A DNA stretch of 64,000 bases, taken from assembly GCA_964493435.1 (NCBI GenBank), contig CAZBMB010000004.1:66719-130718 (forward strand), written 5' to 3'. This stretch comes from an uncultured Dehalococcoidaceae bacterium. GTDB lineage: Bacteria > Chloroflexota > Dehalococcoidia > Dehalococcoidales > RBG-16-60-22. The notes below the pieces were generated by a model. The model was not told the origin of the DNA. It made no database searches and worked only from the letters and a program-made list of their open reading frames with translations. Shown here piece after piece: positions 37,139-41,049 of the stretch (its first letter is position 1; each line of letters starts with the position of its first letter). Both the position numbers and the translations under genes were made by a program.

Positions 37139-39820
37139 ATGGAAAAGATGAAACATACTCCGCTTTATGACGAGCATATTAAACTGGGGGCGAAAATGGT
37201 GGAGTTCGGCGGCTGGGAAATGCCTCTCCACTATGCCCGGGGTATCCTCGCCGAACATCTGGCCACCAGAAAATGCGGCGGGCTCTTTGATATCTCCCAT
37301 ATGGGCCGGTTCCGCATTGGCGGCGGTGATGCGCTGCCCTTCCTGCAGTATGTCCTGACCAACAACGCCGCAGCTCTGCTGCCGGGAATCGCCCAGTACA
37401 CCATGCTGCCCGATGAAACTGGTGGCGCCGTAGATGACGGGTACCTTTACTGCACCAGTGAGCAGGACTACCTGCTAGTGGTTAATGCGGCCAACACGGA
37501 GCCGGACTGGCAGTGGCTTCAGAAACACATGGCCCGGTTTCCCAAGCTGGTCCTGAAAGACGTTACCGGCCAGCTTGCCATGCTGGCGCTACAGGGCCCG
37601 AAAACAAAGGCAGTGCTGGAAGCCATCCCCGGCGATAGAACCAGAATCCCTGAGCCAATCTGGAACCATCTGACCAACAGTGAATTCATGAGCACCTTCA
37701 TGACTGTCTCCAGAACCGGATATACTGGCGAGCCGCTGGGTTTTGAACTGTTTCCGCCGGTTGATATCGCGGTTTCGCTGTGGCGCGAACTGCTTGAGGC
37801 CGGCGCTGAATATGGTATCGTGCCGGTGGGTCTGGGCGCCAGGGATACACTGAGGCTGGAAGCAGGTTTACCTCTCTACGGTCATGAACTTGGCGACGAT
37901 GTTGACGGTAAAAAGATACCCATATTTGCCCTGCCGGCAGCCCGGTTTGCCGTCAGCTTCAGCCCCGTTAAGGGCGATTTTATCGGGCGCGAGGCACTTT
38001 CCCAGCAGTTCCAGGAGGTGAAGCTCCGACGCGAAGGCAAGCTGGATAAGCCGAAGGATAAACTTCTGGTTCCAAAATCGGCCTACCTGATAGCCGTGCT
38101 GGGCGAAGGCGTGGCCAGGGAAGGAAGTCAGGTCCTGGTCAATGGCAGAAACGCGGGCAACGTTACCAGTGGCACGGTAATACCATACTGGAAATATCAA
38201 GGCCACGGCACACTGGCGATTCCCGGCGACGAATCCGCACGTCGGACACTCTGCGTGGCCTATCTTGATGCCGACTTAACAGAAGGGCAGAAAGTCGAGG
38301 TCATCGTTAGGGAAAAACCGGTTGAAGCCGTTATCGTCGGCAGACACGTCGGTCGTGAAGCACCCCCCTACGCCCGACCCCTGCTTGCCGACAATATCAT
38401 AGACAACGCTCCGACAAAGGGCAAAAAAGCCATAGAAGAACTGGCCGCCAATCTGGTGCAAAAAGCCCACGATAATACTCTGTGGCGCCAACAGCAGACC
38501 ATCAACCTGATACCTTCCGAGCAGACGGCATCACCGCTGGTGAAATTGCTGACCATCGCCGACCCAGCACACCGGTACGCCGAGCACCGCAGGGTAGAAG
38601 CGCTGGAAAACCTTGAGGCGTTCTACTACCAGGGAACCAAGTTCATTGCCGAGGTGGAAAAAGAGGTGCAGGCGCAACTCAGACAATTTCTTGACTGCTC
38701 CGAAGTGGAGGCCAGGCTGGTCAGTGGGCAGATGGCCAATGCCGCCACCTACAGCGGCATCATGGATTACCTGAACCGGGCTGACAGGCACACCACGCCG
38801 AGGAGAGTTAAATACGTGATGAACCACCACATCGGGCGGGGTGGCCACCTGAGCGCCCAGACCATAGGCGCGCTGCGGGACTTTGTCTCAATAGACCCGG
38901 TCACCGACCGCTGGGCGGTGGTCAACTTTCCCGTTCTGGCCAAAAACCCGTATCAGATAGATACCGCCAGAACTGCTGAACTTATCACCAGATACCAGCC
39001 GGAACTATTCATCCTCGGCAAGAGCATGATTTTGTACCGCGAGCCGGTGGCAGAAATAGCCCGGCTCATCGCTGATATGAAGCCGAAGCCAATCATCATG
39101 TATGACGCTGCCCACGTTTTGGGCCTTTTCGGCCCCTGCTTCCAGGAGCCGCTCAAAGAAGGTGCCGATATCGTCACCGCCTCCACGCACAAGACGTTTT
39201 TCGGCACGCAGCGCGGCATCATCGCCAGCAATATGAGTGAGGATTCGGATTATGCTGAACTCTGGGAAAGTATCCTGCGGCGGGCTTTCCCAGGCAGCGT
39301 CAGCAATCATCATCTCGGCACTTTGCTCGGTTTGCTCATGGCTGCCTATGAAATGAATGCTTACGGGCGGGACTACCAGCGTCAGGTGCTGGCCAATGCC
39401 AGGGCTTTCGCCCGGGCGTTGAAGGAACGAGGGCTTCACGTTGAAGGTGACCCGGCAGTCGATTTCACGGAGACTCACCAGGTTCTTTTACGCGTGGGTT
39501 ATGCCCGCGGCGTGGAGATAGCGGAACGTCTGGAACAGAACAACATCATCGTCAACTTCCAGGCACTGCCCGATGACGAGGCTTTCACCGCCAGCAGTGG
39601 CCTGAGAACCGGTGTCCAGGAGATGACTCGATTCGGCATGAAAGAGTCCGATTTCGCCGAGCTGGCGAAATACATGGCGGCGGTCATCCTTGAAGGAAAA
39701 AACGTTGCCAGCGATGTAACCTGCTTCCGGCAGAGGTTCACCACCATGCACTACTGCCTGCCTACGGAAAAGGCCAGACCGCTTATTGATAAAATGCTGG
39801 GTATTCTGTTAAAATCATAA
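37139..39820 (+). CDS. fusion protein: aminomethyltransferase (glycine-cleavage T protein) N-terminal half plus divergent serine hydroxymethyltransferase C-terminal half
   Basis: 893 aa with no internal stop. The N-terminal half has [54 protein letters not shown] and DFIGREAL (GcvT). The C-terminal half, from about nt 38480, has [12 protein letters not shown], GGHLS and [14 protein letters not shown] (SHMT PLP-lysine motif; Lys codon 39191-39193). Confidence 0.85.
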   Translation: [893 protein letters not shown]

Positions 39821-41049
39821 TGCCGCTGCCAAAAAAATTTGATGAGGTGATTGTCATGCCCGGCGTTACATATCAGGAACTCAAACCTCCGCAACGTGTC
39901 CTTCTCGGTCCCGGCCCCAGCAATGTCCATCCACACGTCCAGCAGGCTATGATGGCGCCCGTGCTCGGGCACATGGACCCATATTTTTACACCATTATGG
40001 AAGACATCATGAACCTCCTGCGCTACCTTTTCCGGACCGAGAACAAGCTCACCTTCCCCGTCTCAGCCACCGGCTCTGCGGGTATGGAAGCTTGCCTCTG
40101 CAACTTTCTGGAACCGGGTGACGTTGCCGTCATCGCAAATAACGGGTTCTTTGCCGACCGGATGATAAATATCGCCTTGCGCTGCGGTGCGGAGGTCATC
40201 AAACTGGATGCCGAGTGGGGCCGCATCATTGAGCCCGAGGCAATCGAAGCCGCCCTTAAATCGCGGAAAAAAGTGAAGCTGCTGGCACTGGTACATGCTG
40301 AGACTTCCACCGGCGTTCTGCAGCCTCTCACTGAAGCCTCTAAATTAGCCAAACGGCATGAGGCGCTGCTGCTGGTGGATGCGGTTACATCTCTGGGAGG
40401 ACACGAGCTGGCAGTGGACGACTGGGGCATTGACATCTGCTATAGCGGCTCTCAGAAGTGCCTCAGTTGCCCGCCCGGGCTGTCCCCCATCACCGTTAAC
40501 CAGAAAGCCATGGACACTCTCCCGAAACGCTCACATGCCATACCAAGCTACTATTTTGACCTATCATTGCTCGCCAAGTACTGGGTAAGGGAGAAGGGGC
40601 AACGAGCCTATCATCACACTGCGCCCGCCAGTATGTTCTACGCCCTGCATAAGGCACTGGCGCTCGCCGCCGAGGAAGGTTTAGAGGCACGCATCCAGCG
40701 TCATGCCAGGCACGGCGCCGCGCTTCAGGCTGGTCTGGAGGCAATTGGACTTACCTTACACGTCCAGCCCGAATACCGCCTCAACACGCTGACCACAGTT
40801 CGTATTCCGGAAGGCATTGACGATGCCCGGATAAGGCAGCGTCTCCTGAGCGATTACAGCATCGAAATCGGCGGCGGTTTGGGGACACTGAAAGGTAAGG
40901 TCTGGCGCATCGGGCTTATGGGGTATTCTTCCAGTGAGCAGAATATACTGCTTGTCCTGTCAGCCCTGGAGAAACTGCTGGCTGAAGAGGGTTACAAGAC
41001 GGATTCCGGTGCCGGCGTTAGCGCTGTAGTTAGATCACTTCATAGCTAA
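39820..41049 (+). CDS. class V aminotransferase (serine-pyruvate / alanine-glyoxylate aminotransferase-like)
   Basis: 409 aa. LLGPGPSNVHPHVQQAM and SGSQKCLSCPPG (PLP Lys). The ATG overlaps the upstream stop (TAATG). An alternative start at 39856 gives MPGVTY. Confidence 0.85.
   Translation: MPLPKKFDEVIVMPGVTYQELKPPQRVLLGPGPSNVHPHVQQAMMAPVLGHMDPYFYTIMEDIMNLLRYLFRTENKLTFPVSATGSAGMEACLCNFLEPGDVAVIANNGFFADRMINIALRCGAEVIKLDAEWGRIIEPEAIEAALKSRKKVKLLALVHAETSTGVLQPLTEASKLAKRHEALLLVDAVTSLGGHELAVDDWGIDICYSGSQKCLSCPPGLSPITVNQKAMDTLPKRSHAIPSYYFDLSLLAKYWVREKGQRAYHHTAPASMFYALHKALALAAEEGLEARIQRHARHGAALQAGLEAIGLTLHVQPEYRLNTLTTVRIPEGIDDARIRQRLLSDYSIEIGGGLGTLKGKVWRIGLMGYSSSEQNILLVLSALEKLLAEEGYKTDSGAGVSAVVRSLHS

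Follow-up and report, generated by a model that had tools for sequence, protein, structure and literature searches.

Can a single protein hold two consecutive enzymes of glycine and serine metabolism, and if so, what would it do? The question is raised by a 64,000-nucleotide stretch of DNA (the window) from an uncultured Dehalococcoidaceae bacterium (contig CAZBMB010000004.1). There, an earlier note made from the sequence alone had proposed that one gene, at positions 37139 to 39820 of the forward strand, joins the T protein (aminomethyltransferase, GcvT) of the glycine cleavage system (GCS) to a divergent serine hydroxymethyltransferase (SHMT). The GCS and SHMT catalyze consecutive steps that share labile 5,10-methylene-tetrahydrofolate (methylene-THF), and these steps are central to one-carbon (C1) supply, to the photorespiration-type conversion of glycine to serine, and to the reductive glycine pathway engineered for the assimilation of formate and CO2. 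We found the fused architecture well beyond this locus, with both catalytic sites conserved and with gcvH and gcvP associated with it in relatives. From these sequence features we consider it probable that the protein is a bifunctional glycine/serine/one-carbon enzyme in which a genuine T protein and an archaeal-like SHMT share methylene-THF.

The gene is an uninterrupted open reading frame (ORF) of 893 codons with an ATG start, encoding 893 amino acids; an alternative start at the ATG at 37148 (Met4) would give a product of 890 amino acids, a length common among homologues. In the translated product, Pfam GCV_T matched residues 9 to 254 (E = 2.4e-79), GCV_T_C matched residues 368 to 402 (28.3 bits against a cutoff of 25.9), and SHMT (PF00464) matched residues 442 to 846 (E = 1.3e-32; 113.3 bits against a gathering threshold of 27). 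The T-protein half thus occupies positions 37139 to 38383 (residues 1 to 415), an interdomain linker occupies 38381 to 38458 (residues ~415 to 440), and the archaeal-type SHMT half occupies 38462 to 39817 (residues 442 to 893), all on the + strand. Translation and profile search alike bear out the proposal of a single ORF joining a full-length GcvT to a divergent SHMT. The domain bounds given in the earlier note (~1 to 415 and from ~445 on) agree with the Pfam matches, and every motif that it quoted, 67 letters of sequence and a further 12-letter motif, is found in the translation.

A gene of this kind could be an artifact of assembly or annotation, in which a frameshift, the loss of a stop codon, or a chimeric contig had merged adjacent gcvT and SHMT genes, and separate, adjacent versions of the two genes do occur in other organisms. 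However, a protein search covering 5.8 billion clustered proteins returned at least 120 clusters with 58 to 100% identity, of full or near-full length and with the GCV_T plus SHMT Pfam architecture. A second search, seeded with a Desulfosarcina-type protein, returned at least another 120, bringing the number to more than 240 in all. A genome scan with one genome per species identified at least 522 relatives, from which 80 loci were retained together with 10 kb on either side. In all 80 of these the match covers essentially the whole protein where the contig permits, and the loci derive from Dehalococcoidales, Syntrophaceae/Syntrophales, Desulfobacterales (including an Olavius symbiont), Desulfatiglandales, NC10, Nitrospiraceae, Latescibacterota, and Spirochaetales metagenome-assembled genomes (MAGs). 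Within a 50%-identity library, the fusions ranged from 873 to 961 amino acids, with SHMT-half identity down to 38%, and one came from a Woesearchaeota archaeon. The architecture is in frame across several phyla and across NCBI, JGI, ENA, and Logan data; the identical 893-amino-acid product, free of stops throughout, is also encoded on an independent Logan contig (SRR14802574). This conservation across independent assemblies excludes a frameshift or chimeric join, and we give the artifact explanation practically no chance.

Where the protein clusters carry a name, it is only "glycine cleavage system aminomethyltransferase GcvT" or "aminomethyltransferase," and NCBIfam holds no model for a GcvT-SHMT fusion. 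Because proteins of ~890 amino acids are labeled only "GcvT," SHMT (glyA) may be wrongly scored as absent, or its archaeal-like type missed, in Dehalococcoidia, Desulfobacterota, and other MAGs. The searchable full-text literature yielded unrelated papers only and no description of a GcvT-SHMT fusion, in keeping with the earlier note, which did not recall the architecture as having been characterized. That note had also allowed that the architecture might prove to be widespread and already functionally described; widespread it is, but no functional description was found in the searchable literature. This pairing of consecutive, well-known enzymes in one chain thus seems not to have been studied before.

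The two catalytic halves

Against the NCBIfam GcvT models, the T half scored 313.3 bits for NF001567 (cutoff, 300) and 271.1 bits for TIGR00528 (cutoff, 235.85). Its best match in the Protein Data Bank (PDB) was Bacillus subtilis GcvT (1yx2; 238 bits), followed by the proteins of Thermotoga maritima (1woo) and Escherichia coli (3a8i). Asp99 of the fusion, the predicted catalytic aspartate (codon at 37433 to 37435, + strand), aligns with Asp97 of the E. coli protein, and a 13-letter motif is identical between the two. Conservation was assessed in an alignment of 72 fusions with 53 to 88% identity, in which D99 and G231 to R239 (the GLGARDTLR motif, residues 231 to 239) were invariant. The modeled T half also matched 1woo, 1wos, and 1yx2, with Foldseek template modeling (TM) scores, normalized to the target, of 0.87 to 0.91.

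The SHMT half scored 236.5 bits against the NCBIfam model of bacterial GlyA (NF000586/PRK00011), below the cutoff of 335. Its best PDB match was the SHMT of Methanocaldococcus jannaschii (4bhd/4uqv; 184 bits), whereas E. coli GlyA (1dfo) scored 74 bits and other bacterial and eukaryotic SHMT structures scored ~61 to 80 bits. Given the missed cutoff and the low score to the E. coli enzyme, the half is not a canonical GlyA orthologue. In a neighbor-joining tree, the SHMT halves of the fusions formed one clade, apart from standalone archaeal-type SHMTs (for example, those of Thaumarchaeota). The fusion clade has the signatures IPSE[QN]T, RYAEH[RK] followed by a short insertion, GGHLS, and N[YF]QALPDD, where the standalone archaeal-type enzymes have IASEN, RYAEG, GGHIS, and NKN. 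As judged from these comparisons, the SHMT half belongs to a distinct clade closest not to bacterial GlyA but to the M. jannaschii enzyme, which uses tetrahydromethanopterin (H4MPT) (PMC3697235).

The residues expected of an active SHMT are nevertheless present. The half matches E. coli Tyr55/Glu57 (YAEH), Tyr65 (FYYQG), His126 (GGHLS), Asp200/His203 (YDAAHV), His228/Lys229 (STHK), and Arg363 (SGLRTG), and Y480, E482, Y497, H570, D656, H659, H684, K685, R692, and R823 were invariant in the 72 fusions. The putative lysine that binds pyridoxal phosphate (PLP) is Lys685 (codon at 39191 to 39193, + strand). By their residues, both halves look catalytically competent. One member of the fusion family in the 50%-identity library, a protein of 889 amino acids (P0132), has lost two key residues of its SHMT half, the lysine for PLP (SAHHTFFG) and the histidine of GGHLS (GGLAG), and may be a catalytically dead paralogue.

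A half that misses the GlyA cutoff might instead act mainly as an aldolase or transaldolase on another beta-hydroxy amino acid, for example converting threonine to glycine and acetaldehyde. The fusion would then couple threonine-derived glycine to glycine cleavage and not glycine-serine interconversion. Residues 175 to 438 of the half do bear a partial likeness to the L-threonine transaldolase ObiH (7k34; 106 bits), and the fluorothreonine transaldolase model TIGR04506 scored 156.7 bits. The match to M. jannaschii SHMT is, however, much stronger and extends over the full length, and the counterparts of E. coli Glu57, Tyr65, and Arg363, which we take to be tied to the folate-dependent SHMT reaction, are among those that never vary. 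Fusion to a folate enzyme likewise favors a folate-dependent reaction. An aldolase or transaldolase therefore seems very unlikely to us, and we continue with the reading of this half as an SHMT.

Between the two halves, linker residues 421 to 440 are the least conserved part of the alignment, with a mean column identity of 0.36 compared with 0.6 to 0.9 elsewhere. An AlphaFold model of the whole 893-amino-acid chain, built on the 72-fusion alignment, had a mean predicted local distance difference test score (pLDDT) of 84.9 and a predicted TM score (pTM) of 0.82, high enough to suggest that the domains are arranged in a defined way. The pLDDT fell below 50 only in linker residues 422 to 425 and in two short segments, residues 718 to 723 and residues 476 to 484, the latter around Y480 and E482, whose equivalents in known SHMTs are contributed across the dimer interface. 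A fold search of the PDB found no chain spanning both halves; each half fits its own family (TM, 0.85 to 0.91).

Glycine cleavage context and proposed function

If the T half serves in glycine cleavage, its partner genes might be found beside it. We clustered the ORFs from the 80 loci and checked representatives with Pfam; the proportions given here refer to the 77 loci in which the fusion ORF is intact. Eight loci (L011, L040, L041, L061, L070, L075, L076, and L080) have gcvH immediately downstream of the fusion. After gcvH there follow mostly gcvPA and gcvPB, with lipB, lipA, or lpd in some loci, and a gene for an Lrp/AsnC regulator sometimes lies upstream. Within 10 kb of the fusion, gcvH is present in 13 of the 77 loci and gcvP in 15, including a Dehalococcoidales locus (L008) that has the same pair of fusion and AGXT-type aminotransferase genes as the window. 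A second gcvT-like gene was found in only one of the loci examined (L052). In L011, a glycine riboswitch (12792 to 12894) lies between the fusion and gcvH-gcvPA-gcvPB, a position from which the H- and P-protein genes, but not the fusion, would be glycine controlled. The same locus has a molybdenum cofactor riboswitch at 5819 to 5938, and L041 has a glycine riboswitch at 463 to 566, far upstream of the fusion. Scanned in its entirety against Rfam at gathering thresholds, the window gave no match and hence no glycine riboswitch. By eye, the other recurrent neighbors (ATP synthase subunits and DnaJ-like, PilZ-like, and phosphatase genes) seem functionally unrelated.

The earlier note had doubted that the T domain works as a classical component of the GCS. 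Against that doubt stand the 8 loci with an adjacent gcvH, the GcvT cutoffs that the T half passes, and the standing of the fusion as the sole gcvT in every examined locus but L052. Given the adjacency to gcvH, and as far as sequence can tell, the most likely reading of the T half is that of a classical T protein dependent on the H protein.

The partnership also exists without the fusion. Four unfused proteins fall inside the SHMT clade of the fusions (P0271/P0127, P0162, P0123, and P0143), and genomic contexts were obtained for the first three. P0271/P0127 (457 amino acids) is encoded 18 nt downstream of a separate gcvT of 438 amino acids, and the gene for P0162 (470 amino acids; Woesearchaeota) overlaps the end of a gcvT of 418 to 436 amino acids. 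Such split gene pairs indicate that the partnership of gcvT with an SHMT-like gene has been selected independently of the fusion. The gene for P0123 (485 amino acids; L087, 1 to 9458) overlaps the end of a formate-dehydrogenase-like pair consisting of a NuoF-like and a molybdopterin subunit. Genes for an epimerase, a class I/II aminotransferase, and a PALP enzyme come next. The contig has low coverage, and the context resembles one of C1 assimilation but contains no gcvT.

In the bifunctional enzyme that we propose, the T half would accept the aminomethyl group that the H protein carries on its lipoyl arm and transfer it to THF, releasing NH3 and forming methylene-THF in a reversible reaction. 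With this methylene-THF, the PLP-dependent SHMT half would turn a second glycine into serine, or it would run in reverse. The carrier would presumably be THF and not H4MPT, since the SHMT half is fused to a T protein of the THF type. Since SHMT active sites are built across a dimer, the protein is most likely a homodimer, joined through its SHMT halves and carrying two T modules. The fusion would keep the producer and the consumer of labile methylene-THF together, allow a direct hand-over between them, and regenerate THF on the spot. With separately encoded P, H, and L proteins, the net reaction would be 2 Gly + NAD+ ⇌ Ser + CO2 + NH3 + NADH. Flux might run toward the assimilation of glycine or glyoxylate, toward the supply of C1 units from serine, or toward synthesis of the reductive glycine type.

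Several observations weigh against this proposal. As the earlier note had reported, the window holds no gcvH, gcvP, or lpd, and tblastn with queries from related loci found neither these nor lipA or lipB in its 64 kb; about 60 of the 77 loci likewise have no GCS genes within 10 kb. Dependence on the H protein is thus argued from orthology and from a minority of contexts. The SHMT half falls below the GlyA cutoff, and its closest solved relative uses H4MPT, not THF. At the position of E. coli Asn347, which we take to contact the pterin ring, the fusions have Gln808 (invariant in all 72), with N806 kept. The fusion clade accordingly reads N-[Y/F]-Q where the standalone archaeal-type relatives read N-K-N or N-x-N, so that folate binding may differ. 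Finally, channeling and the direction of flux are matters that we infer rather than observe.

The same observations would fit a module that works without the H protein, in which the GcvT-like half is only a folate-binding acceptor or donor of C1 units for the SHMT-like half, as in dimethylglycine and sarcosine oxidases. One such role would be to provide THF chemistry for an SHMT with a pterin pocket suited to a different carrier. Besides the missing GCS genes, the kinship of the SHMT half with an H4MPT-type enzyme, and its N-[Y/F]-Q, the occurrence of both fused and split forms in Woesearchaeota archaea speaks for such a module, and so does the fact that the GcvT-fold domains of dimethylglycine oxidase (DMGO), sarcosine oxidase, and trimethylamine N-oxide (TMAO) demethylase are detectable relatives of the T half. 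On the other hand, the T half scores above the GcvT equivalog cutoffs but far below the cutoffs of the demethylase and oxidase families, and the catalytic aspartate and an 11-letter motif of true T proteins are invariant. In the gcvH-gcvPA-gcvPB clusters, moreover, it is the fusion that fills the gcvT slot. We consider an H-protein-independent module distinctly unlikely, although the GCS genes missing from the window and from most loci leave some room for a nonclassical role of the T half.

A bolder version of the bifunctional enzyme can also be entertained. The fusion and its split form might together be a dedicated "glycine-to-serine synthase," in which one bound THF shuttles between the T site and a remodeled pterin pocket of the SHMT, interconverting 2 Gly and Ser + CO2 + NH3 independently of the free folate pool. 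In many uncultured anaerobes, such an enzyme would stand in for canonical gcvT plus glyA as the native core of glycine and serine assimilation, the reductive glycine route included. This version we regard as speculative and rather unlikely.

The downstream aminotransferase and neighboring genes

Directly downstream of the fusion lies a gene that the earlier note had assigned to the class V aminotransferases of the Ser/Ala:glyoxylate type. Pfam and PDB matches agree with this assignment: Aminotran_5 scored 104 bits against a threshold of 21.5, and the best structural matches were the alanine-glyoxylate aminotransferase of Nostoc (1vjo; 391 bits), PucG (315 bits), and human AGXT (284 bits). The similarity to serine-pyruvate and alanine-glyoxylate aminotransferases (1vjo, 3isl, and 1h0c) extends over the full length. 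The protein stays below every NCBIfam equivalog cutoff, the best being BhcA (231.6 against 650). An enzyme of this type could supply glycine from glyoxylate or interconvert serine and hydroxypyruvate.

The same note had read the junction of the two genes, TAATG, as a sign of translational coupling. The overlap is present, in that the TAA stop codon of the fusion (39818 to 39820) shares one base with an ATG at 39820, from which the longest ORF would encode 409 amino acids. Coupling through the overlap, however, is not borne out. This ATG occurs in the window only; all seven aligned Dehalococcoidales relatives have TAAGG, TAAGA, TAAGT, or TGAGG at this position. By contrast, a Shine-Dalgarno sequence, GAGGTGA (39844 to 39850, + strand), and the ATG that follows it at 39856, 36 nt past 39820, form a segment (39844 to 39858) that is invariant in the window and in the seven relatives. 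Translation therefore most likely starts at 39856, giving a 397-amino-acid protein encoded at 39856 to 41049 (+ strand); the corresponding ORFs in the relatives mostly encode 397 to 400 amino acids, with 414 in L008. A spacer of 35 nt and an independent ribosome binding site point to operon linkage and not to coupling by overlap. Of the 77 loci whose fusion ORF is intact, 9 have the aminotransferase gene behind it, all nine being Dehalococcoidales-type relatives; the linkage is confined to a single subclade of Dehalococcoidales.

Upstream, pstS-pstC-pstA-pstB-phoU (32808 to 37107, + strand) stops 31 nt short of the fusion. In L001, L003, and L004, too, pstB and phoU lie upstream of the fusion, but in L002, L005, and L012 they are absent, and a gene for a 130-amino-acid protein is found there, close to the fusion or immediately upstream of it. 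This difference between close relatives looks like an insertion or deletion, and the absence of the pst genes from these three loci indicates that they are not part of the unit formed by the fusion and the aminotransferase gene. A promoter and terminator scan of positions 32000 to 42500 found no informative site in the 31-nt gap between phoU and the fusion or after the aminotransferase gene.

Some more distant genes of the window may bear on the same metabolism. A 1,032-amino-acid protein encoded at 52063 to 55161 (− strand) has FAD_binding_4, FAD-oxidase_C, 4Fe-4S dicluster, and two CCG domains and resembles a dehydrogenase for glycolate or D-lactate in which GlcD- and GlcF-type parts are fused. 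Should glycolate be its substrate, it could provide the AGXT-type aminotransferase, encoded 11 kb away, with glyoxylate. A D-isomer-specific 2-hydroxyacid dehydrogenase (483 to 1505, − strand; 36 kb from the fusion) could, from its family, act as a hydroxypyruvate reductase or be of the SerA type, in keeping with a route through serine and hydroxypyruvate. Further C1-related genes encode a formyltransferase (Formyl_trans_N/C) and, after it, a URO-D-family protein (5208 to 7633, + strand); the URO-D family includes corrinoid-dependent methyltransferases. A 1,385-amino-acid protein of the coenzyme A (CoA)-enzyme activase type (21937 to 26094, + strand) has two BcrAD_BadFG ATPase domains and DUF2229. 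No Pfam match was found at 1e-5 for the ORFs at 60175 to 62733 (+ strand; 852 amino acids), 4271 to 5077 (− strand; 268 amino acids), and 14317 to 15117 (− strand; 266 amino acids), or at 1e-3 for the ORF at 50587 to 51120 (+ strand; 177 amino acids).

Significance and comparison with known systems

A widespread T protein-SHMT fusion, together with a split pair, provides direct evolutionary evidence that proximity of the two activities pays. The fusion is a ready-made candidate for the channeling of methylene-THF and may furnish better components for synthetic C1 pathways. Its wide spread among anaerobic phyla, its dedicated archaeal-like SHMT clade, and its occurrence in both split and fused forms add to its interest.

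How far does the fusion resemble enzymes already known? The SHMT half shares its Pfam family, fold, and catalytic residues with bacterial GlyA (NF000586; 1dfo). With the H4MPT-dependent SHMT of M. jannaschii it can be aligned over its full length (Foldseek identity, 31 to 32%; TM, 0.85), and the PLP-binding and catalytic residues are all kept.

The T half is, by eye in the HMMER alignment, about half identical to B. subtilis GcvT. It resembles GcvT/AMT proteins (TIGR00528 and NF001567; 1yx2, 1woo, and 3a8i) in passing the curated cutoffs, in its catalytic aspartate and fold, and in the adjacency of gcvH-gcvPA-gcvPB in relatives. Unlike B. subtilis GcvT, it has ~12 extra residues near 295 to 312 and a longer stretch at ~350 to 366. 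Unlike GcvT/AMT proteins in general, it is covalently linked to an SHMT, and no other GCS gene adjoins it in the window.

A precedent for a folate domain fused to a C1-generating enzyme is offered by the GcvT-fold domains of DMGO (1pj5), the sarcosine oxidase alpha subunit (2gag), DMGDH, and TMAO demethylase (9q59). In DMGO, the C1 intermediate is passed on internally. In enzymes of the DMGO type, the GcvT-like domain is C terminal, independent of the H protein, and more divergent (69 to 105 bits, compared with 175 to 238 bits for true T proteins). In contrast to these fusions, the protein described here appears to combine a true GcvT orthologue with a PLP enzyme as its partner.

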